Assembly: GCA_003144275.1 (NCBI GenBank)
Contig: NJBF01000043.1
Location: forward strand, 1 to 27,290
DNA from: Candidatus Heimdallarchaeota archaeon B3_Heim
Lineage (GTDB): Archaea; Asgardarchaeota; Heimdallarchaeia; Hodarchaeales; Hodarchaeaceae
Direction: 5' to 3'
Length of the DNA stretch: 27,290 nucleotides
The notes beneath the pieces were generated by a model that did no database searches, was not told the DNA's origin, and saw only the letters and a list, made by a program, of their open reading frames with translations. Of this stretch, positions 2,563 through 18,536 are shown piece by piece. A program made the position numbers and the translations under genes. Position 1 is the stretch's first letter. Each line of letters opens with the position of its first letter.

Positions 2563-3105
2563 TCATTTTTTTAATTCTCGCAAGACATTTTGAACAAGAT
2601 CTGTAAAAATCTTCGGGATAATTTTTCCTCCGAACTTAGCAGAAGCTTCATAGAAATCAGAACCTTGAGATCTTGCATAACGCTGCCCATCTTGAGTAGG
2701 AATTGCCTTTTGTCCAGCTAAATCAGTTTTATTGCCAACAATGAAAATTATCTTGTCATCTCCAGCAACTCCTCGGTATTCTTTTAACCAACGATCAAGA
2801 TCCTTTAATGTTTCGGGGCGGGTTATATCATAGACGCCTATACACCCTAAAGAACCCTCAAAATACGTTTTACGTAAACTCCCGAATTTTTCTTCTCCTG
2901 CGGTATCCATAAATACAATTCTAATCGGTTTAGCATCAATGATTAAACCTCGTTTGACAGTAATGTCAACCCCAAGAGTAGGTAAATAATCTTCAGAAAA
3001 AGTGTTCTCAGTATATCTTCTGATCAGAGAAGTCTTTCCAACTGAATATGTTCCAACAGAGTTTAGCTTGATTATAACCTCATTCGACAATAGTGATTTA
3101 CCCAT
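2563..3105 (-). CDS. Ras-superfamily (Rab-like) small GTPase, eukaryotic signature protein
   Basis: G1 GTYSVGKTS, G2 YLPTLG, G3 DTAGEE, G4 NKTD, G5 EASAK. RabF-like segments LGVDI, KFGSLRKTYFEGS and GVYDIT. No C-terminal Cys. Confidence 0.93.
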   Translation of the reverse strand: MGKSLLSNEVIIKLNSVGTYSVGKTSLIRRYTENTFSEDYLPTLGVDITVKRGLIIDAKPIRIVFMDTAGEEKFGSLRKTYFEGSLGCIGVYDITRPETLKDLDRWLKEYRGVAGDDKIIFIVGNKTDLAGQKAIPTQDGQRYARSQGSDFYEASAKFGGKIIPKIFTDLVQNVLRELKK

Positions 3106-6892: not shown

Positions 6893-7689
6893 ATGAGTTC
6901 ATTTTCTACAAAAAGATTTCTCATTCCATTTTTCATTGGTAGTTTAGGTTTTTTAACTATTCTTCTCTCGGAATTTATCGCGTTTGATCAAGGAGAGAAG
7001 ATTGTAGAACTCACCTGGCTTGCAAGTTTATTTGTTGTGATTTCCACCTTGATCGTCCGATTTTACTCGCTTGATGGAAGCCGTGTGAATCAAATTATTA
7101 AAGAAACGAATCCATTGAAAAGCTCTGAGTTGAGACCCCAGCGCTACTTAAATTGGATGGTAATCGCAATGATTGTTGGTCTTATTGCAACGGTGACGAT
7201 CGCCTCTGATTTTATTTATGGAATGCTTGCCTATTTAGTGATGCAACTCTGCCTGATAATCTCTTACTCTGGAATTATATCTATTAAACCATCGGAGTTT
7301 CGAACAGTTTCAAGATTGTTTCATAAGATAGTATTTTTTATTGTCGCGTGGGTGATTCTTATCCCCACGATTTATATCATATTAATTTTTAGTGGAACGG
7401 ATTCTCTTATTGTAATCCCATATGTTTTTACTATCGGAACAATGACTTGTATTTCTTGTTTGGTTTAGTTTATGATCGACGATCGCGTCTCTTTCGTTGG
7501 CTGATGGTCTTTGCTACAGGTCTGTTTGTATTTTCTGATACCTTAATCGGAAATAGCAGATATGGAACTATCGAGATCAATCTTAATTATCTGATTGATA
7601 TCACCTATGTTCTCAATATATTCTTATTATCGCATGCTATTTTGTTTTTACGGAATGAATTAGGTATGACTCCTTATAAGACTGCTTAA
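6893..7689 (+). pseudogene. YhhN/TMEM86 (lysoplasmalogenase-like) membrane protein split by a -1 frameshift near 7455-7468
   Basis: ORFs 6893-7468 and 7447-7689 overlap in adjacent frames. Adding one base in ATT TC[N] TTG TTT GGT joins them into about 265 aa (…TMTCISLFGLVYDRR…). The YhhN-like motif GLFVFSDTLIG is in the second part; FIYGMLAYLVMQ and IPYVFTIGTM are in the first. Confidence 0.65.
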
Positions 7690-7868
7690 GATAGAAGTAC
7701 AAAGGATATACAGGAATTAGGGGTTAAACATGGGAAAAATTTATAATATCGCATATATTCTTGAATATTTGTATGATATCTTTTTTTTGTTAAAGATATG
7801 GTATAAGGTAATATTGCTCAGAGTAAGAATCTATTATCTTTTCACCCTGAATTTCTGATTTCCAATAG

Positions 7869-8017
7869 AAAGTAAAGGTAGTCCTTTACTTTACAATGCG
7901 TATTTCGATTCTTTGATGGAAAAATCAGAAGCAGACGGTAATCGTATAATTAAATGAATTTATACGAAGAATTTACCATTTGAATTTTATTTAAAATTCG
8001 AAAAAGTACTTTAAATT
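7869..8017. promoter_or_regulatory. Promoter region of the opine-dehydrogenase operon with several inverted repeats
   Basis: AAAGTAAAGG-tagt-CCTTTACTTT (7869-7892); TCGTATAA-N10-TTATACGA (7942-7967); GAATTTTA-tt-TAAAATTC (7982-7999); palindrome AAAGTACTTT (8003-8012) overlapping a purine-rich BRE-like run and TATA-like TTTAAATT (8010-8017). Confidence 0.5.
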
Positions 8018-8036
8018 GTAAAAAGAGTCATTTAAC

Positions 8037-9182
8037 ATGAGATCTAAGGAAATTGATGCAAATTGTATCGCTATCCTAGGAGCTGGAAATGGTGGTCATG
8101 CTTTTGCTGCTTATGCAAAATCAAAAGGATATAAGGTTAAGATATGGAATAGATCCATTTCAGTTATTGATGCCATAAAGAAAAATGGAATCACCTCATC
8201 AGGTGTACTTGAAGGTCATTTCAATACCGATCTAGCTACACCCTCGATCCAGAAAGCTATCGAAGAAAGTAAGTTAATAATGCTTGTGACAACGGCCGAT
8301 GCACATAAAGAAATAGCTGTACAGATCGCTCCTTATTTAACAAACGATCAAGTTGTAGTTTTAAATCCAGGGAGAACAGGGGGTGCATTTGAAGTGAGTA
8401 ACACCATTAAACAGCATAATGGCCCATTTAAACCACAGGTGATTGAAGCTCAATCCTTACTATTCGTTTCACGATGTACCAAACCTAGCCATGTAACAAT
8501 TGCAGGAATTAAAAGAAGAGTACCAGTTTCTGCTTTCCCATCATTTTATAACGAAGAAGCTATTCCTGCATTGAAAGAAGTAAGTAGCAATTTTTGTGAA
8601 ACCGAATCTGTATTAAATACCTCATTTGATAATATAGGAGCTATATTTCATCCAGCACCCTTGTTATTGAATGTAGCCAGATGTGAAGATCCCTATGTCA
8701 AATATAGACATTATATTGATGGAGTGTCACCATCTGTTGCTTGTTTCTTAGAGAAAATGGACAATGAAAGAGTTGCAGTTGCAGGAGCTTATGGTGTTCA
8801 CGCCATTTCACTGAAAAAATGGTTAAATTTAGTTTATGGGAGTACAGGAGAAAATTTGTTTGAAATTGTTCAGAATACAAAGGAGTATCAAAATGTTATC
8901 GCACCATCTAACCTCGATGTCCGCTATATTTTTGAAGATATTCCCACTGGGTTAGTACCTATTTCGAGTTTTGGGGAAGCTGCAGGTGTACCAACACCCC
9001 ATATTGACATGATAATTAACTTGGCTACATCTATGTGTAATAAGGACTATAAGAGCCATGGTAGAACAATAGAGTCAATGGAACTAGATAAAATTCCCAG
9101 TTACCTGTTAAAAGAGTATGTGACTCTTGGAGATGAATTTTACATCGAAATAATGAATCAGGAGAGTGTATTAGAAGAATGA
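8037..9182 (+). CDS. NAD(P)-dependent opine (octopine/nopaline-type) dehydrogenase family protein
   Basis: Rossmann motif IAILGAGNGGHAFAA, LNPGRTGG, TSFDNIGAIFHP, the C-terminal helical-domain motif RYIFEDIPTGLVP, and GVPTPHIDMII. Confidence 0.9.
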   Translation: MRSKEIDANCIAILGAGNGGHAFAAYAKSKGYKVKIWNRSISVIDAIKKNGITSSGVLEGHFNTDLATPSIQKAIEESKLIMLVTTADAHKEIAVQIAPYLTNDQVVVLNPGRTGGAFEVSNTIKQHNGPFKPQVIEAQSLLFVSRCTKPSHVTIAGIKRRVPVSAFPSFYNEEAIPALKEVSSNFCETESVLNTSFDNIGAIFHPAPLLLNVARCEDPYVKYRHYIDGVSPSVACFLEKMDNERVAVAGAYGVHAISLKKWLNLVYGSTGENLFEIVQNTKEYQNVIAPSNLDVRYIFEDIPTGLVPISSFGEAAGVPTPHIDMIINLATSMCNKDYKSHGRTIESMELDKIPSYLLKEYVTLGDEFYIEIMNQESVLEE

Positions 9183-10903
9183 AGCATAAGAAGCATATAT
9201 TATGTGCTACACTCGGATCTTGTGTCCATATTGCTGGAATATTTAATTTTATGCAGATTTCTCAAGAACAGGGTTATAAAACAACATTCTTACGCCCTCC
9301 AAACACAATTGAAAATATCATAAAGGAAATAAAAAGAATAGATCCAGATATTGTCGCATTGAGCTATCGTTTGACACCAAAGGTAGCAGTTGAGATTGTG
9401 AGTAAGCTTATAGATAAAATCACTCCCAAGATGAGGGAAAAGGAGTGGATTTTTGGTGGAACAAGTCCAGTATGTAAAAGTATTGAGCCCATGGGTCTAT
9501 TTAACCATTTCTTTACAGGCCAATCGTCAGAAATAGATGTTATAGAATATTTAAGAAATTCCCGATTTCCATCTAAAGAAGAAAAAGTTTATGCAACTAA
9601 TTTACTTGACCGTTTGAAAGCTTATTACCCTTATCCATTGATCAGAGCCCATTTTGGAGTACCCTCTGTTGAAGTAACCTTTAAAGGTATCAAAACTATA
9701 GCACTTGCAAAGGTTATTGATATTCTTTCAATAGGTCCTGATCAAAACTTCCAAGAACACTTTTTTTGCCCAGAGGAAATGAAAGTATTAGAACAGGGGG
9801 CAGGAGGAGTTGCAATACGTTCTAAAGAAGATTTAATCAATTTTTACGAGGCATCAAAAAATGGAAATTTTCCATTATTACGTTGTTATTCAGGTACAAG
9901 AAATCTAATACAAATGGCCGAGTTACTTAAAAATACCATTAATAACGTTTGGGGTGCCACACCCCTTTTTTGGTATTCAGAACTGGATGGCCGAAGTAGT
10001 AGAACATTACAAAGTGCAATCAAAGAAAATCAAGAAAATATGATTTGGCACGCTAGACAAAACCTACCATTTGAATCAAATGAATCCCATCATTGGAGTT
10101 TAAGGTCTGCACCAGACGTAATTGCTGTTACGGCTGCTTTCTTGGGCGCATATAATGCGAAAAAAGCTGGAATACAACATTACATTTCCCAGATGATGTT
10201 CGATACCCCTCTTGGAATTTCTCCTCGCTTTGATTTAGCGAAAATGATAGCTAAGACTGAATTAATTGAGGGATTACATGATAAGAATTTCAAAACGTAT
10301 CGTCAAGTTCGCTCAGGGCTTCTAAGTTTTCCTGAAGATTTAGATCTTTCGAAAGGTCAGTTAGCGTCCTCTATTCAAATCGCAATGTTTATGAGACCGC
10401 ATATTGTACATGTGGTTAGCTATTGTGAAGCTGATCATGCTGCTACGCCAGAGGATATTATAGAAAGCGCAAAAATTACACGGAAAATTATCTTAAATTC
10501 AATAAGAGGATTACCATATGTTCATTTTGATACAAAGCTTGAAGAATATAAGTCTAGACTTATTTCAGAGACTTATCATATTCTTCAGGCAGTTCAGAAT
10601 ATCTCAGAAGAATCAAATATGGATCCATTAAGTCACCCTCTAACATTAGCAAATGCGGTTAAAATAGGAATATTTGATGCGCCGCATTTAAAGGGGTTAA
10701 AGGCTGCATGTGGAGAAATTCAAACTTCTGTAATCGATGGGAAGTGTATAACCATTGATCCTCATACAGATTTAATTTTATCTGAATTCGACAGATTAAA
10801 TCGAATCTTGGAGAAAAATGGCTTCCCTCTGCTAAAGAATGAATTGAAACACCAGAATACAACTCAAATCCAGAGGAAATTATTCACTTCTCCCTTTAAT
10901 TAA
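9179..10903 (+). CDS. Cobalamin-binding protein: N-terminal B12 Rossmann domain plus about 450-aa catalytic domain of unassigned function
   Basis: C15-V-H17-I-A-G20, then exactly 41 residues to S62-Y-R-L, then 28 residues to G93-G94. This matches the DxHxxG-x41-SxL-x26-28-GG base-off/His-on signature with Asp replaced by Cys. ATGA overlap with the upstream stop. Confidence 0.8.
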   Translation: MKHKKHILCATLGSCVHIAGIFNFMQISQEQGYKTTFLRPPNTIENIIKEIKRIDPDIVALSYRLTPKVAVEIVSKLIDKITPKMREKEWIFGGTSPVCKSIEPMGLFNHFFTGQSSEIDVIEYLRNSRFPSKEEKVYATNLLDRLKAYYPYPLIRAHFGVPSVEVTFKGIKTIALAKVIDILSIGPDQNFQEHFFCPEEMKVLEQGAGGVAIRSKEDLINFYEASKNGNFPLLRCYSGTRNLIQMAELLKNTINNVWGATPLFWYSELDGRSSRTLQSAIKENQENMIWHARQNLPFESNESHHWSLRSAPDVIAVTAAFLGAYNAKKAGIQHYISQMMFDTPLGISPRFDLAKMIAKTELIEGLHDKNFKTYRQVRSGLLSFPEDLDLSKGQLASSIQIAMFMRPHIVHVVSYCEADHAATPEDIIESAKITRKIILNSIRGLPYVHFDTKLEEYKSRLISETYHILQAVQNISEESNMDPLSHPLTLANAVKIGIFDAPHLKGLKAACGEIQTSVIDGKCITIDPHTDLILSEFDRLNRILEKNGFPLLKNELKHQNTTQIQRKLFTSPFN

Positions 10904-10921: not shown

Positions 10922-11860
10922 TCAAATTGGAGCATTAAATATATCGAAGCGTGAATAATGACCTGAGTAATCAAAATTCTGTCTTTCTTCAATTGCTTTC
11001 ATAAAATCGACATCAGCATAAACAATTCCTTCTGTACCAACTAGTGGGTCACTTACAAAGTTCCCTTTTGGATCCGCTATAACCGTTCCCCCATTTTGCC
11101 AAATTTTTCCCTTTTTCTCCTCTAAATTAAGATATTTCTTAACTGGGAACTCTTTATCAGATAAATTTAGAAGATCCTCTGTTCTCAACAGGCCAGATGC
11201 TGATATTACCCAATAACGTCCTTCTAAAGCAAGGAACCGTGTAATTTCTCTTGTCAGGCCATCACTCCCTGGCCAAACAGCTACGTGTAATAACTCATTT
11301 TGTTTATGAAGCGAAGCACGTGCATAAGGAATCCAATTCTCCCAGCAGTTTAAGCCACCGATTTTATATCCATGAAAAAGTACTGTTTTAAGTCCTAGTC
11401 CGTCACCATCCGCCCAAATAAGTCTTTCTTCATAAGTAGGTTTAATCTTCCGATGTCGATTGATTAACTCACCATTTTCATCGATCGTAATCAATGTACA
11501 GTATGTCGAACCACTAGATTTTTCAGCAATTCCTCCCATCATCATGATTTTTAATTCCTTAGCTAACTTTCGCATTTCTAAAATGACTTCTGAACCACCT
11601 GATAAATCGAGTGCTTCACGCCAATATGTACTGTACGTTTTTTTCTGATCGGAGTTGTCCCATTTTGCTCCTCCAGTCTGGGATGGCCAAAATGGATAAC
11701 CAGGGATTAATGTTTCCCCCCATGTCACCAATTTGGCATCATTATCCCGAGCTTCCCTAATATAATCGGATAATTTCTCCCATGTCTTTTGACTATTTAA
11801 TACGATAGGAGCAATTTGAATTCCTGCAACACGAACCATTGGATATTCCTCATACTTCAT
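10922..11860 (-). CDS. Carbon-nitrogen hydrolase, nitrilase branch
   Basis: Catalytic triad Glu (WGETLIPGYP), Lys (RHRKIKPTYEER), Cys (GGLNCWEN); C-terminal DYSGHYSRFDIF. Confidence 0.92.
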   Translation of the reverse strand: MKYEEYPMVRVAGIQIAPIVLNSQKTWEKLSDYIREARDNDAKLVTWGETLIPGYPFWPSQTGGAKWDNSDQKKTYSTYWREALDLSGGSEVILEMRKLAKELKIMMMGGIAEKSSGSTYCTLITIDENGELINRHRKIKPTYEERLIWADGDGLGLKTVLFHGYKIGGLNCWENWIPYARASLHKQNELLHVAVWPGSDGLTREITRFLALEGRYWVISASGLLRTEDLLNLSDKEFPVKKYLNLEEKKGKIWQNGGTVIADPKGNFVSDPLVGTEGIVYADVDFMKAIEERQNFDYSGHYSRFDIFNAPI

Positions 11861-11972: not shown

Positions 11973-12824
11973 ATGGGTCTAGTATTGAAGAAATGCCCGA
12001 AATGTGAAAATGAGTTTCCAGATGACTATTTGTTCTGCCCGAAATGTGGTGGTAAGTTTTCAAGTCACGATTTAGCTGGTTTTGAGGAGATTGATGATTC
12101 AAATCTGATGGTTGCGGGGTACGACTTACACAAGTCCTACTTAATGGGTAAAAATGCTGTTAATGCTCTGCGAGGAGTTGACTTGAAAGTTAAGATTGGA
12201 GATTTTATCTCTATTATGGGACCATCAGGGTCAGGAAAGAGTACTCTGATGCACTTACTTGGTGGATTAGATAAACCATCAAGAGGTCACATTGTTATAC
12301 GCCAACCAACTGGTTTACCCGAAAAAAAAGGATCACTTCAAGATATTTCCAACCTGTCAAAAGAAGCACTTTCAGAAATTCGCTTACATATTTCTGGATT
12401 CGTTTTCCAGCAGTTTTACCTATTACCGACATTATCTGCAGCAGAGAATATTAGCATCCCCCTCATTTTTTCTGGGAATAAATCAAGTCTTGTGAAGCAA
12501 AGAACCGATCAATTACTTGAATTGGTTGGTTTATCTATGAGAGGCCATCATCTTCCTTCAGAGTTATCAGGGGGTGAGCAACAAAGAGTTGCCATTGCTA
12601 GAGCGCTAGCAAATGATCCTCCCCTAATTTTGGCTGATGAGCCAACAGGTGATCTTGACTCACGTACTGGACACATGATAATGGAGATGTTAAAGAACCT
12701 CAACGAAATGGGTAAGACCATTGTTATGGTTACTCATGACCAAAGTGTGGCTGGCTTTGCACGAACTAAATATGAAATGATGGATGGGAAATTTATCAAT
12801 AAAAACCAAGGAGAAATGAGGTAG
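11973..12824 (+). CDS. MacB/LolD-type ABC ATPase with N-terminal zinc ribbon
   Basis: CPKC-x10-CPKC at the N-terminus; Walker [11 protein letters not shown]-loop FVFQQFYL, signature LSGGEQQR, Walker [10 protein letters not shown]-loop VTHD. Confidence 0.93.
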
Positions 12825-12830
12825 CCCAGT

Positions 12831-15671
12831 ATGAATCTCAGAATTCAAACAAAACAACAAAGCGGCTGGTTGCTAAAATTCATTTTTCGAGATTTTAAGA
12901 AGCATAAATTGAGAAACCTAATTGCTATACTATCAATTGGGTTAAGTATTGGAATTCTTGTAGCAATGAACGCTACAGTTGACACCTTGGGAAATACCTA
13001 CGTAGATCTAGTAATTCATACAACCCCTGATTATGATTTTGAGATCAGACCAACTAAAGAAGCAACAATTCAAAACTATTCACGACTCATATCCTCTATA
13101 AAAGAGATTAATGAGATTGAAGAGGTTACACCAAGATTTATCTCCCCTTCTAACATGATACTCTCCTATGAGCTGGAAAATGATACTAGATATGACTTAA
13201 TACAACTTCCTGCTACTCTAATTGGTTTGAACATAAGCAAAGAAAATGAACTCGGAATTGGTTCCTTTGACCCAAGAATTGACAACGCCATTGGAGTAAA
13301 CAAATGCCTTCTTGTGGGAAACTTTGGTGAAAACGTCAGAACAGCATTAAATGATAACCTTTCGGTTAATTACTTCTATCTCAGGTTAAATAATCCCATT
13401 ACAGGGGTAATTAGTGAGATAAAACTAGAGATTGAATCGGTTGTACAAAATCAACAACGTTTACCCGATGCCTTCAACCAAATCGTAGTTGATCTATCAC
13501 TTATTGAATCATGGCTTAACATAGAGGAGATTTGTACAACACTTATTGGGAAATTTAAAGACCCTGTGTATTCAGTAATGGATCCTGAGGGATCTGTTGC
13601 TAAAGCTAAAGATTTAGCAATAACTATCCAGTCAAAAATTGGTATTGAAGAATATTCGGTTTCACTCCCTAAAGCTCTGGCAATTGAAAGTGCAGATTTC
13701 ACAGGATTTAGGCTATTGCTAAATTTTATTGGGATTTTGATACTCCTCTTAGCCACAATTCTTATTTATTCCCTAAATACAGTTTCTATCCAAGAAAAAA
13801 ACCAAGAATATGCAATGTTAAGAACAATTGGTATCAAAGACCGTAAATTACTCCTGATGTTATTTGTAACCCAATTGGTTAATGTTTTTTTTGGAATAAT
13901 AGTTGGAATAGTATTAGGCTATGTTCTTAGCTTAGTGATAACTAACCTTCTGTTATCCAATATACCCAACCTCTCAATGACCATTTCCACCAGCACCCTA
14001 ACCTTTTCGGTGTTTGTGGGAAGTGTAGCTGGAATATTATCTGCTATTAAACCTAGTGTAAACTTGATCAACAGAAATATTACCACGAGTCTGGAAGTAG
14101 GTCGTGTGCTCAATCAAGAATATTCCATTCAAAGGGAAAGAAGTGTCTCAAAAAGCATGGGATTATTAGGGTTTGCTATAGCCAGTATGGGATCAGTATT
14201 CTTTATTATTCTCCCACTTTTGGAATTTCTAGATAATCCACTCTATACACAAATTCTATTCTTAAGCTTATTATTATCATTCCTCATTGGATCTGTACTC
14301 CTAACCGTTGGAGTTTTGTCCCCTATTTGTGAAATGGTACTTGTAAGGATAATGATTGCTTTTAAATACACCCGTAAGATAGGTATCATGACTAAAACTT
14401 TCTTATTGAAAAATCAACGTAGAAATTCACTAACTGCCACTATTTTCGCCCTTAGTATGGCTTTCATTCTGTATCTTTCAATGTCCAATAGTTTCCAGGG
14501 TCATATGATGGTTGAAAATTTAAGACATTATTATGGGTCAGACTTAGTTGTTCAGTCATCTGGAGTACAAGATGCTTATGTTGACCCATCTGTCGTGACA
14601 TTTCTTGAAAGTCACAATAATGTATCTTCAGTATCTTATGTGACTACTGGAAGTATTTTTTCATTAATAGGTTGCCAAGCAACTCTTGGTGATCTAGCAT
14701 TATTCGATGCACTTACCCCGAGTGGTATTTATGGTATTTCTGATTCCAATTTCGACCAAAGTCTTTACAGAAAACCTATCATCCAACAACCTGCAAACCA
14801 AAATGCATGGGATCTTCTAACAAATAATAATACAGTAATCATTTCAAGAAGTATCGCAAATCAGCTGAAAATGGATGTTGGTGACTTTATAAGACTCAAA
14901 ATTTCCAGTTATATAAGCAAAAATCATCAATTGTATGGTAAGGATTTAAATCTATCTATTGTTGGGATAGTAGACCGTGTTAATGGTTTTCCTGATGTTC
15001 ATATCGCTAAGAGGTACTCTGGTTCTTCAGCTATCTTTCTCGGAAATTTTACCTGGAATCAGGTAATGCTTGGGAAAAGCATCAACAATTCAGATCAAAT
15101 AACTGCTGAAAAGAGTATAGACCGAGTATTTGTAAAAGCAAAATTTTGGTGGACAAGGACAACTTTTCTGGAGACCATACAAAGTGATCTCTTTTTAGAA
15201 TTTGGGACATCAATTGTCACCGTGAGAATTGACCTTTTATTAGAAAATCTCGATACGCAACTAGAACAGCAACGAGATCAGCTTGCCATTATTCTATCAT
15301 TATCGCTGATAATTGCTTTCTTTTCCATTTTTTCTAGCACTCAAACAAGTATTTTAGAATCAATGAGAGAAATTGGTGTAATTAAAGCTGTTGGATTGAA
15401 GCAAAGAACAATTACTGTAATTTTTATTTCACAGGCTGTAATTTTAACTGTCGTTTCGACGATTCTAGGTGGTCTAGTAGGTTACATTCTTGCCTTACTT
15501 TCGCACCTGCAGTCAGCGATTCAGACAGAATTCCCCATAGCACTTATCCCTGTGGATGCAATTATATACCAAGTGTATGCAATATCCATTGTTTTAGCGA
15601 TAATTGGTACTTATATTCCAGTTCGATCACTCAAAAACAAAGAACCATCGGAAATCTTACGAACATTATAA
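12831..15671 (+). CDS. FtsX/MacB-like ABC permease with two repeated halves
   Basis: Two TM1, large extramembrane domain, 3-TM units. FtsX-type motifs EKNQEYAMLRTIGI and ESMREIGVIKAVGL; ends EPSEILR. Starts 6 nt after the ATPase stop. Confidence 0.9.
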   Translation: MNLRIQTKQQSGWLLKFIFRDFKKHKLRNLIAILSIGLSIGILVAMNATVDTLGNTYVDLVIHTTPDYDFEIRPTKEATIQNYSRLISSIKEINEIEEVTPRFISPSNMILSYELENDTRYDLIQLPATLIGLNISKENELGIGSFDPRIDNAIGVNKCLLVGNFGENVRTALNDNLSVNYFYLRLNNPITGVISEIKLEIESVVQNQQRLPDAFNQIVVDLSLIESWLNIEEICTTLIGKFKDPVYSVMDPEGSVAKAKDLAITIQSKIGIEEYSVSLPKALAIESADFTGFRLLLNFIGILILLLATILIYSLNTVSIQEKNQEYAMLRTIGIKDRKLLLMLFVTQLVNVFFGIIVGIVLGYVLSLVITNLLLSNIPNLSMTISTSTLTFSVFVGSVAGILSAIKPSVNLINRNITTSLEVGRVLNQEYSIQRERSVSKSMGLLGFAIASMGSVFFIILPLLEFLDNPLYTQILFLSLLLSFLIGSVLLTVGVLSPICEMVLVRIMIAFKYTRKIGIMTKTFLLKNQRRNSLTATIFALSMAFILYLSMSNSFQGHMMVENLRHYYGSDLVVQSSGVQDAYVDPSVVTFLESHNNVSSVSYVTTGSIFSLIGCQATLGDLALFDALTPSGIYGISDSNFDQSLYRKPIIQQPANQNAWDLLTNNNTVIISRSIANQLKMDVGDFIRLKISSYISKNHQLYGKDLNLSIVGIVDRVNGFPDVHIAKRYSGSSAIFLGNFTWNQVMLGKSINNSDQITAEKSIDRVFVKAKFWWTRTTFLETIQSDLFLEFGTSIVTVRIDLLLENLDTQLEQQRDQLAIILSLSLIIAFFSIFSSTQTSILESMREIGVIKAVGLKQRTITVIFISQAVILTVVSTILGGLVGYILALLSHLQSAIQTEFPIALIPVDAIIYQVYAISIVLAIIGTYIPVRSLKNKEPSEILRTL

Positions 15672-16768: not shown

Positions 16769-17584
16769 CTATTCATAAACTAATGTTTTACGCTGGAAAA
16801 GTAATATTCCACCATATAGGGAGACGATTGTTGCTAAGACAATTATGATAATTGCTCCCCATAGGGGAATAACTGTAAACTCGGCAGAGAAGAGGTTTAA
16901 ACTATGATAACGAAATGAATCTGTCAGTATATTGTCACCAAGCATAACCACTTGCTGAAATATTTGATTCACCCAGAAAGGAGGAAAGAAATACACGATA
17001 GGGCTATCGAAAGGAATGAAGATACCACTTAAGAACAACACTGGCATTACATAACACATAGAAATCCCAGTGGCAGCATCAGCTGTTTTTGCATAGGCAG
17101 AAATCACAATTCCTACCCCTAATGTCGATATTCCAAAGATAAAGATGATAAATAGCCCGATGATTAATAAGAGCACTTTCTGTTCGTGAAACCTTACACC
17201 AAGGAGGCCATAGCCAAGAAATACCATTAATAATAGCTGAATAGCTAGGAACACTGATTCACTCAGTAAAGTTCCTATGAAGATCTTTGTCCTCCCAATG
17301 GGAGTCGTATCGAGTCTCATCAATGTACCCCGATGTTTTTCACTTGTCAAGGACACCGCTGCATTTATTGTACCAAAAGATGCAGCATAGATCAAGACTG
17401 ATGAAAACGCGAGGTCAAATACGTTATATCCACCTGGAACTTCGATTGAATTAAACACAAACAGGAATATAAACGTAAATAGTATAGGAAAACCAAATGC
17501 ATATAAATACGTTTGGTAACTTCTAAATTTAATTTTAAGGTTTTTTACCGCAATAGCGATAATTTGTTGTAATTCTATTTTCAT
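16769..17584 (-). CDS. ABC-2 type exporter permease
   Basis: Six TM segments; FGFPILF, SEKHRGTLMRLDTTP, LFLSGIFIP motifs. 4-nt overlap with the ATPase stop. Confidence 0.9.
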   Translation of the reverse strand: MKIELQQIIAIAVKNLKIKFRSYQTYLYAFGFPILFTFIFLFVFNSIEVPGGYNVFDLAFSSVLIYAASFGTINAAVSLTSEKHRGTLMRLDTTPIGRTKIFIGTLLSESVFLAIQLLLMVFLGYGLLGVRFHEQKVLLLIIGLFIIFIFGISTLGVGIVISAYAKTADAATGISMCYVMPVLFLSGIFIPFDSPIVYFFPPFWVNQIFQQVVMLGDNILTDSFRYHSLNLFSAEFTVIPLWGAIIIIVLATIVSLYGGILLFQRKTLVYE

Positions 17585-18536
17585 TGATTTAACCTCCGAC
17601 GTGCTAGGATTAAGAATACATCCTCCAGTGTCGATTGGCGAAGATTAAGTTCTTTAATTTCACCCAAATCTGAATAGATTTCTTGATGTAATATTTTAAC
17701 CAAATTTTTTATTCCCCCAGCAAAAAAAATACTAATTTTCAGATCATTGTCGTTAACAATGTTTTTGACAAAATCCAGAGACTCAATCTGTTTAATTAAC
17801 TCTTGAATTATCATTTTTTGATCGGATACGATTTCCAATGTGTTTTCTTCGCAAAATCTTTCCTTGAGTGACTCTGATGTGCCATCGGCTATTATTTTTC
17901 CTTCATCTAATATTAAAACCCGATCACTTAGAGTTTCTGCTTCATTCATATCATGTGTTGTCAAAATAATGGTCTGATGATTGTTTTTGAGCTCACGAAG
18001 CAGTTCCCAAACAGTATGTTGGGATTGGGGATCAAGTCCTGCTGTAACTTCATCTAGAAATAGTACCTCTGTGTCCATGATTAGATTAATTGCTAGATTT
18101 AATCGCCTTTTCATCCCTCCAGAAAAGTTTTTTACTCTATCTGTTCTTTCAATGAGTCCTAGTCTATCTAAGATTACTTTTGCTTCTCTTTCTAATTTTT
18201 TTTTTGTTTTCCTTGCATTATACCGAAAAATACAAGATTTTCCAATGCTGTGAGTTCTTCATAGAATACTAGTTCTTGTGGAGCAAAGCTAATGCATTTT
18301 CTGACCTCAGCTTGCTCTTTGACAATATCATATCCATTAACAAAAGCGGTACCTTCATCAGGCTTTAGTAAGGTAGTTAACATTTTAAGAATTGTTGATT
18401 TACCAGCACCATTGGGTCCTAATAGACACACTATTTCACCTTTGTTTACGTGAAGATTGATGTGATCAACAACAACCGTCTTATCATATAATTTTGTTAA
18501 ATTTTCAGTTTTAAGCGCGATTGACAATTTTTTCAC
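17581..18536 (-). pseudogene. ABC-2 (DrrA/NodI-like) ATPase split by a frameshift in an A10 tract (18196-18205)
   Basis: Walker A GPNGAGKST is in ORF 18192-18536. The frame of ORF 17581-18114 stays open upstream to 18195 (LEREAKVILDRLGLIERTDRVKNFSGGMKRR) and carries the signature, Walker B LFLDEVTAGLDP and H-loop TTHD. One extra A gives a continuous protein of about 318 aa. Confidence 0.85.

Follow-up and report, generated by a model that had tools for sequence, protein, structure and literature searches.

An opine dehydrogenase and a glutamate mutase-like B12-domain protein encoded together in a heimdallarchaeal genome: an archaeal example of an orphan enzyme pair

A new family of B12-dependent proteins was predicted by Zhang, Rodionov, Gelfand, and Gladyshev in 2009 in 11 bacteria and no archaea; its members have a distant N-terminal B12-binding domain, their genes always lie beside one for a pfam02317 protein, and Ddl or AsnB genes are found near them in some genomes (PMC2667541). 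This study concerns an archaeal copy of that arrangement, a pair of genes for an opine dehydrogenase and a B12-domain protein, in a stretch of 27,290 nucleotides (the window) from Candidatus Heimdallarchaeota archaeon B3_Heim, of the order Hodarchaeales (GenBank assembly GCA_003144275.1, contig NJBF01000043.1, positions 1 to 27,290, forward strand). An earlier note on this DNA had put the pairing forward as a candidate undescribed pathway. In this it was anticipated by Zhang et al., whose family the archaeal protein matches by description, down to the Ddl and AsnB neighbors, which are reproduced here; the glutamate mutase-like barrel and the CxHxxG hallmark described below were not recognized in 2009 (PMC2667541). 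Its further statement, that no characterized pathway joins the two enzymes, agrees with the literature, in which none was found, and full-text searches returned no characterization of the pair after 2009. As far as these searches show, the enzyme pair, of which this is an archaeal example, has stayed an uncharacterized orphan since it was flagged in 2009.

For the B12-domain protein, the closest characterized system is the glutamate mutase of Clostridium cochlearium (GlmS and GlmE, structures 1cb7 and 1i9c, with the accessory protein GlmL/MutL), with which it has a B12-binding Rossmann domain and a triosephosphate isomerase (TIM) barrel in common. It differs from GlmS/GlmE in being one chain, not two subunits, and in belonging to a family paired with an opine dehydrogenase gene. 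For the dehydrogenase, the reference is the Arthrobacter N-(1-D-carboxyethyl)-L-norvaline dehydrogenase (CENDH, or ArODH; PDB 1bg6), which carries Ala111 and Asn198, prefers hydrophobic amino acids, and uses NADH (PMC10787698). The mODH enzymes of Telek 2024 prefer aspartate, then glutamate and cysteate, take pyruvate as the oxo acid, and perform better with NADPH, and reciprocal double mutants identified an Arg/Gly pair as the switch from hydrophobic to acidic L-amino acids (PMC10787698). That paper gives no genomic context for the mODHs (PMC10787698).

Organization and distribution of the gene pair

The pair consists of two plus-strand open reading frames (ORFs), the first encoding a 381-amino-acid protein (P0001) and the second, at 9179..10903, a 574-amino-acid protein (P0002). 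The ATG of the latter overlaps the TGA of the former within a single ATGA, indicating translational coupling of the two genes. The closest upstream ORF stops at 7689, leaving a 347-bp spacer before the dehydrogenase gene, and the unit ends against a convergent gene; the ORFs and the sequence thus bear out the layout given in the earlier note. The closest homologs of both proteins are found in metagenome-assembled genomes of Hodarchaeales or Heimdall-type Asgard archaea, with identities of up to 94% and 99%.

When one genome was scanned for each species, at least 567 species proved to have a relative, and 80 of these loci were analyzed, with adjacency counted only at loci with enough sequence upstream of the B12 gene. 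In 28 of 28 Asgard loci, the dehydrogenase gene directly precedes the B12 gene on the same strand, with a 4-nt overlap in every one. The same arrangement was found in all four loci from other archaea, with small gaps, and in 36 of 39 bacterial loci, mostly with overlaps of 4 nt or 1 nt; at locus L059 the dehydrogenase gene lies 33 nt upstream of the B12 gene. Anaerobic Firmicutes, for which the earlier note suggested similar pairs, do contain them. Among 301 sampled Asgard genomes, the B12 gene was present in 115 and the dehydrogenase gene in 116 (both genes in 110 of the 121 with either one, the B12 gene alone in 5, the dehydrogenase gene alone in 6, and neither in 180), counts that are descriptive, since relatives are not independent. 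All five genomes with the B12 gene alone are contig-edge or partial cases, and five of the six dehydrogenase-only genomes carry paralogs of 27 to 33% identity. The co-occurrence pattern in Asgard archaea is unambiguous, and the pairing of the two genes is far beyond chance. Together with the Pfam and fold assignments described below, the overlap conserved throughout the Asgard loci upholds the proposal of a translationally coupled opine dehydrogenase and cobalamin-type enzyme, and the counts for adjacency and co-occurrence show the two genes to be a functional unit that archaea and bacteria alike have conserved.

Some variation surrounds this core. In one other Asgard family the order is reversed, with the B12 gene first and the two genes still adjacent (examples in Table 1). 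An AsnB-type amidotransferase gene follows the pair in 11 loci and a Ddl-type ligase gene precedes it in bacteria; PmbA/TldD, DD-carboxypeptidase, Lgt, and Lnt genes are sporadic neighbors elsewhere. In Asgard archaea the pair mostly stands alone, as in the window. An apparent dehydrogenase-mutase fusion ORF at locus L040 was rejected as an artifact of longest-ORF calling.

A quick maximum-likelihood tree was built from 78 family members and four paralogs. In it, the 36 Asgard sequences all fall, with three sequences from other archaea, in a single clade (Shimodaira-Hasegawa-like approximate likelihood ratio test, 98) beside Bacillota clades, and one further archaeal sequence from Methanomicrobia JdFR-19 (L052) is placed among bacterial ones. 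The Hodarchaeales-type group of the window is a nine-member subclade with a long stem (length, 0.74). Because the deeper forks of the tree are unresolved, no direction of transfer is claimed.

The dehydrogenase and its predicted substrates

P0001 matches the Pfam family Octopine_DH (PF02317) with 146.8 bits against a cut-off of 30 and aligns over its full length with ArODH (E value, 5e-77); it is the sole Octopine_DH protein encoded by the genome. The Rossmann GxGxxG motif is present as G15-A-G17-N-G-G20, and in the alignment with 1bg6 the catalytic residues His202, Arg292, and Asp297 of ArODH correspond to His205, Arg296, and Asp301. Two sets of positions differ from ArODH: Ala111 and Asn198 are replaced by Arg113 and Gly201, and Asp34 and Asp36 by N38 and S40, which, with R39 between them, give the NADPH-type motif N38-R39-S40. 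In both respects P0001 resembles mODH-45, -47, -48, -49, -55, and -582, in which positions 111 and 198 are Arg and Gly and the coenzyme motif is of the NADPH type (Telek 2024, PMC10787698); the replacement of D34 and D36 is of the same kind as in the NADPH-preferring mODHs (PMC10787698). A comparison by eye also found the blocks LNPGRT..ALEF, SLDNIGAIFHP, and HRY..EDVP in common between P0001 and the mODHs.

These features are not peculiar to the window. N38, R113, G201, H205, R296, and D301 are invariant across an alignment of 30 dehydrogenases encoded next to a B12 gene, and the N38-R39-S40 motif is invariant or nearly so. The alignments thus show P0001 to be a bona fide CENDH-type opine dehydrogenase, with the Arg/Gly determinants of acidic-amino-acid specificity and an NADPH-type motif, and, since the determinant residues are invariant in the 30 sequences, the partner dehydrogenases constitute a coherent class of the NADPH and acidic-amino-acid type.

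The identity of the dehydrogenase bears on two of the routes in which such an enzyme might take part. Dehydrogenases of the CntM type finish metallophore synthesis, and a polycarboxylate opine could chelate metals, so that the B12 enzyme might supply a modified amino acid building block for a molecule of the staphylopine, pseudopaline, or yersinopine type. Several results argue against such a route: the full-length match of the dehydrogenase is to CENDH, a search of PDB sequences at an E value of ≤0.01 returned no CntM-type chain, and neither cntL nor CntK nor a metallophore exporter or importer is present in the window or recurrent in 79 loci. The earlier note, one of whose options was a novel opine or metallophore made from a B12-modified amino acid, had already judged a staphylopine-type route unlikely from the lack of a nicotianamine synthase-like cntL gene; none is found among the window ORFs, and, with a CENDH-type dehydrogenase, a metallophore origin for the pair seems to us very improbable indeed.

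Catabolism deserves fuller consideration. Opine dehydrogenases are reversible, the Arthrobacter CENDH is considered catabolic, and adenosylcobalamin (AdoCbl)-dependent mutases commonly open fermentative routes of amino acid degradation. The Arthrobacter enzyme is the closest solved relative of the dehydrogenase, and the organism comes from marine-sediment or cold-seep samples (DNA runs only). The pair could therefore act on an imported opine or N-carboxyalkyl amino acid, which the B12 enzyme would rearrange before oxidative cleavage to an amino acid and a 2-oxo acid, and the earlier note had suggested environmental opines, such as those of marine invertebrates, as the substrates. The evidence lends this proposal no support. 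The partner dehydrogenases carry the NADPH-type motif and the Arg/Gly pair; no conserved transporter, for opines or otherwise, and no downstream catabolic gene lies beside the pair in 79 loci; the recurrent neighbors elsewhere are biosynthetic ligases and amidotransferases; and bacterial copies are under cyclic di-AMP (c-di-AMP) rather than a substrate-type regulator, the c-di-AMP riboswitch RF00379 being present at four of nine loci. A catabolic role is consequently one that we consider improbable.

The B12-binding domain and the GlmE-like barrel

Recognition of the domains of P0002 depends on the method used. Against the Pfam B12-binding family (PF02310), P0002 scores 30.8 bits in hmmscan and 32.4 bits in a six-frame search (cut-off, 32.1), and against Met_asp_mut_E (PF06368) it scores 11.9 bits (12.9 in the genome search) with a cut-off of 26.6, where true GlmE reaches about 780 bits. 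When PDB sequences were searched with a profile of the family, matches were to the B12 domain only, among them the corrinoid protein 4jgi and OraE, and GlmE was absent from its results. The relationship to GlmE is detectable by fold and by profile-profile comparison only.

The fold comparison was made with an AlphaFold2 model built from 18 homologs (mean predicted local distance difference test score, 84.7; predicted template modeling score, 0.79). Residues 137 to 542 of the model match the GlmE chain 1cb7_B with a Foldseek E value of 3.8e-15 and a VIA Z score of 32.3 (root mean square deviation, 2.9 Å over 367 residues), and the barrel also matches lysine 5,6-aminomutase (KamD; Z score, 29), ornithine 4,5-aminomutase (OraE; 26), and methylmalonyl coenzyme A mutase (MCM; 20). 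Residues 1 to 132 match corrinoid proteins with Z scores of about 15 to 16. The structural matches of both domains thus make P0002 the counterpart, in one chain, of GlmS and GlmE together. The predicted complex of the dehydrogenase and the B12 protein scored 0.00, which is uninformative on binding either way.

The cobalamin-binding motif is unusual. In place of the canonical D-x-H-x-x-G, P0002 has C15-x-H17-x-x-G20, in which the motif residues are invariant in an alignment of 18 sequences, and Cys occupies the first position in 122 of 123 and in 77 of 78 family members in which the motif was located. Other motifs of the domain are retained (S62-Y-R-L65, which is S-x-L-like, and G92-G93). The histidine-on binding envisaged in the earlier note is plausible, although the motif is not of the canonical kind.

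In the barrel, the catalytic features were compared by hhalign between the family and a GlmE profile made from Tepidanaerobacter and Anoxybacter sequences, with the numbering checked against 1cb7_B. The C-terminal half aligned with a probability of 78% and placed the invariant E417 on Glu330, the residue of GlmE that binds the 5'-deoxyadenosine ribose. A relaxed alignment of the N-terminal half, of low confidence, places His158, a variable residue, Tyr237, and Pro262 at the positions of the glutamate-binding GlmE residues Arg66, Arg100, Arg149, and Glu171 and Tyr266 at that of Tyr177; in the same low-confidence region the invariant Arg156 and Arg235 lie two residues before the Arg66 and Arg149 positions, on the same strands. 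This suggests a pocket that differs from the free-glutamate pocket and is possibly deeper. About 110 columns are invariant in the 18 family sequences, which come from Asgard archaea, Bacillota, Aminicenantes, and Firestonebacteria, and the invariant polar residues of the barrel include R156, R214, R235, R272, R275, R309, and R378, arginines that, we suggest, would suit a tricarboxylate substrate.

Relatives of P0002 add a further line of evidence. In a search of 1.8 billion cluster representatives, family members were found fused to a MutL/GlmL-type protein (PF13941; P0149, P0156, and P0157) and, in P0132, to an ATP-grasp domain of the glutathione synthetase/RimK type (GSH-S). A paralogous clade of about 620 amino acids (P0165, P0174, P0176, and P0188) has the same barrel and keeps the canonical DxHxxG, as GNDPHTxG. 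The gene for one of them, P0176, lies directly downstream of an Octopine_DH gene with the Arg and Gly determinants (L128:3613-6772). Since the paralog clade keeps DxHxxG, the superfamily descends from canonical B12 binders, and since the pairing extends to a DxHxxG paralog, the link to the dehydrogenase predates the change of Asp to Cys. The MutL and ATP-grasp fusions and the dehydrogenase-paired DxHxxG paralog support a predicted AdoCbl radical chemistry for the family. Two side observations concern the same proteins: P0143 is a family member fused, by a weak match, to a Peptidase_M15 domain, and the P0165 gene is followed by a glycosyltransferase gene.

Besides P0002, the source genome (3.95 Mb in 103 contigs, 94% complete) has eight matches to B12-binding domains and a gene for a PduO-type adenosyltransferase, and no genuine GlmE was found in it. 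Genuine GlmE (about 780 bits) occurs alongside the pair in Anoxybacter and Tepidanaerobacter genomes (L084 and L085), and, because the two coexist in the same genomes, the family is not simply glutamate mutase and is not redundant with it. The GlmE genes at L084 and L085 are flanked by MutL-size and other genes.

The Cys substitution also raises the question of whether P0002 uses AdoCbl at all. The Cys-x-His site might bind another cofactor or a metal, or a methyl-corrinoid for methyl transfer, or the domain might be a degenerate, noncatalytic partner of the dehydrogenase. The near-universal Cys in the place of Asp would fit such a view, as would a Pfam B12-binding score at threshold, a Met_asp_mut_E score far under its cut-off, and the apparent lack of conservation (low confidence) of the glutamate-binding Arg66, Arg149, and Glu171. 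Set against this are the retained His17, Gly20, S-x-L-like, and GG motifs, the equivalence of E417 and Glu330, the fusions to MutL/GlmL-type proteins, and the pairing of canonical-DxHxxG paralogs with a dehydrogenase in the same way; moreover, the top structural matches of the barrel (GlmE, KamD, OraE, and MCM) are all AdoCbl enzymes, and the invariance of some 110 residues in 18 sequences speaks for an enzyme that works. A non-AdoCbl or noncatalytic P0002 appears to us distinctly unlikely. The earlier note had named rearrangement, demethylation, and C-N cleavage as possible B12 chemistries; the fold, the MutL fusions, and the Glu330 equivalent favor a GlmE-type radical rearrangement, and demethylation or methyl transfer is disfavored.

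Regulation, surroundings, and proposed function

No known riboswitch was found in an Rfam scan of positions 7300 to 8300, which returned a single chance-level small nucleolar RNA match, and the c-di-AMP riboswitch RF00379 gave no match in that interval even at an E value of ≤1. The four bacterial loci with RF00379 directly upstream of the dehydrogenase gene belong to Thermoanaerobacter, Fervidicola, Sporanaerobacter, and Tepidanaerobacter; it is missing from all 10 archaeal loci tested. The bacterial copies with this riboswitch, of the ydaO/kimA type, are orthologous two-gene units with products about 50% and about 40% identical to the window proteins. The Hodarchaeales-type clade has instead its own conserved upstream inverted repeat, RF00379 being confined to bacteria among the loci tested.

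Two elements stand out in the upstream region (Table 1). The first is a block conserved as CAAAAAGTTAATAAA in related Hodarchaeales-type loci, a candidate B-recognition element (BRE)/TATA promoter. The second is an inverted repeat of 11 bp that encloses an 8-bp hairpin; the pattern occurs once in the 3.95-Mb genome, and the RNA fold of positions 7840 to 7940 has a minimum free energy of −26.3 kcal/mol (z score, −3.3). Covariation among six to eight close relatives amounts to one compensatory pair. The conserved repeat is a candidate cis-regulatory element that could act as the stem of a leader RNA or as an operator for a protein, alternatives between which so few close relatives and a single compensatory pair do not distinguish. 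It may be an archaeal equivalent, in regulation, of the c-di-AMP riboswitch of bacteria, unless it is such an operator.

Table 1. Features of the operon and its upstream region in the window, and gene pairs of reversed order in another Asgard family
Feature	Position	Strand	Basis
Upstream intergenic region of the operon (347 bp)	7690..8036	+	ORF list and sequence
A-rich and TTTATAA block, candidate BRE/TATA promoter	7731..7745	+	Alignments of 7 and 12 related upstream regions
Inverted repeat, CTGATTTCC ... GGAAAAATCAG	7855..7928	+	Arms conserved in 8 related loci
Opine dehydrogenase gene, CENDH type (381 amino acids)	8037..9182	+	Pfam Octopine_DH (E value, 6e-43); 1bg6 alignment
Stop/start overlap, ATGA	9179..9182	+	Read from sequence
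N-terminal B12-binding Rossmann-like domain (residues 1-132)	9179..9574	+	PF02310, profile matches, fold
GlmE-like TIM-barrel catalytic domain (residues 137-542)	9587..10804	+	Model, Foldseek, VIA, hhalign
Reversed-order pair	G071:C3:38533-41310		
Reversed-order pair	G113:C112:84790-87576		
Reversed-order pair	G264:C135:38151-40900		
Reversed-order pair	G267:C14:60217-63020		

The surrounding genes in the window are unrelated to the pair. Upstream lie an sdhCDAB-like cluster and a YhhN-like gene, the latter apparently split into two overlapping ORFs in different frames (6893-7468, 191 amino acids, and 7447-7689, 80 amino acids), which could reflect a frameshift, a sequencing error, or a pseudogene. 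The gene downstream of the pair (10922..11860, minus strand, convergent) encodes a protein of the CN_hydrolase (nitrilase) superfamily; as a third pathway gene it was rejected, being convergent and not a recurrent neighbor of the pair. Beyond it (11973-15671) come an ABC ATPase that has a zinc ribbon at its N terminus and then an FtsX/MacB-type permease of unusual length (946 amino acids) with two FtsX domains. A second ABC transporter ATPase is split between two minus-strand ORFs with a gap (17581-18114 and 18192-18536), the N-terminal ABC_tran part comprising 114 amino acids and the C-terminal part 177; it adjoins an ABC-2 permease and a winged-helix regulator and is possibly a disrupted gene. 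The window also encodes tetratricopeptide repeat (TPR) proteins and, on the minus strand at 2563-3105, a small GTPase of the Ras/Roc family (Pfam Ras E value, 1e-39), a eukaryote-like signature protein typical of Asgard archaea. The public runs that contain the stretch are of DNA from marine-sediment and cold-seep metagenomes; no RNA run is among those listed.

Taken together, the evidence is best read as an operon for an NADPH-dependent opine dehydrogenase and an AdoCbl-dependent GlmE-type mutase that would yield a rearranged N-carboxyethyl acidic amino acid in a biosynthetic route, a reading to which we give roughly even chances. We predict the following steps. (i) With NADPH as reductant, the dehydrogenase would join pyruvate by reductive condensation to L-glutamate, L-aspartate, or a close analogue, the product being an N-(1-carboxyethyl) acidic amino acid. 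(ii) The B12 enzyme would carry out an AdoCbl-dependent, glutamate mutase-type radical 1,2 carbon-skeleton rearrangement, either of this tricarboxylate opine or of the amino acid ahead of condensation. (iii) The end product would be a branched polycarboxylate small molecule, which in some bacteria is probably amidated or ligated further by the adjacent AsnB or ATP-grasp enzymes. (iv) This product would most likely be a solute tied to ion or osmotic homeostasis.

Several points weigh against this biosynthetic reading. First, the Pfam support for P0002 is weak, with B12-binding at threshold and Met_asp_mut_E at 11.9 bits. Second, the Asp of DxHxxG is replaced by Cys, and cobalamin binding in the CxHxxG clade is a prediction. 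Third, the mapping of the glutamate-binding residues comes from the low-confidence part of the hhalign alignment. Fourth, no MutL-type reactivase was found in the 94%-complete source genome, and the accessory ligase and amidotransferase genes are absent from the window. Finally, the substrate, the product, and the order of the steps rest on inference, and the osmolyte idea is drawn by analogy from the riboswitch context of bacteria and would be extended to an archaeon that has no such riboswitch.

A bolder form of the same proposal combines a new class of AdoCbl mutase acting on an N-(1-carboxyethyl) acidic amino acid (an opine), a Cys-His lower ligand, a new tricarboxylate, and a cis-regulatory leader peculiar to Asgard archaea. 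As a complete set, this is rather unlikely in our estimation, short of implausible. If true, it would mean an unprecedented Cys-His lower-ligand arrangement in an AdoCbl carbon-skeleton mutase, a previously unknown branched tricarboxylate metabolite widespread in anaerobes, and an Asgard operon under its own cis-regulatory leader instead of the bacterial c-di-AMP riboswitch.

Relative to the description of 2009, the present analysis adds the single-chain GlmS/GlmE architecture, the Cys-for-Asp hallmark and the DxHxxG paralogs, the fusion partners, a quantified co-occurrence in Asgard archaea, and a distinct, riboswitch-free upstream element in the archaeal clade. The orphan family is large: one scan found it in no fewer than 567 species, and about 38% of the sampled Asgard genomes have it; its partner enzyme is defined and experimentally tractable, and the likely substrate class can be read from characterized relatives. 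To our knowledge, few distinct AdoCbl-dependent isomerase reactions have been described, and for this reason a new one would be a rarity. Solving the pair would add a new B12 reaction and would probably bring to light a new small metabolite that in bacteria is linked to c-di-AMP signaling. The replacement of the Asp of the cobalamin ligand triad by an invariant Cys is in itself a problem of B12 chemistry that lends itself to testing. The archaeal clade indicates that the module is no bacterial specialty and that in archaea it is regulated differently.

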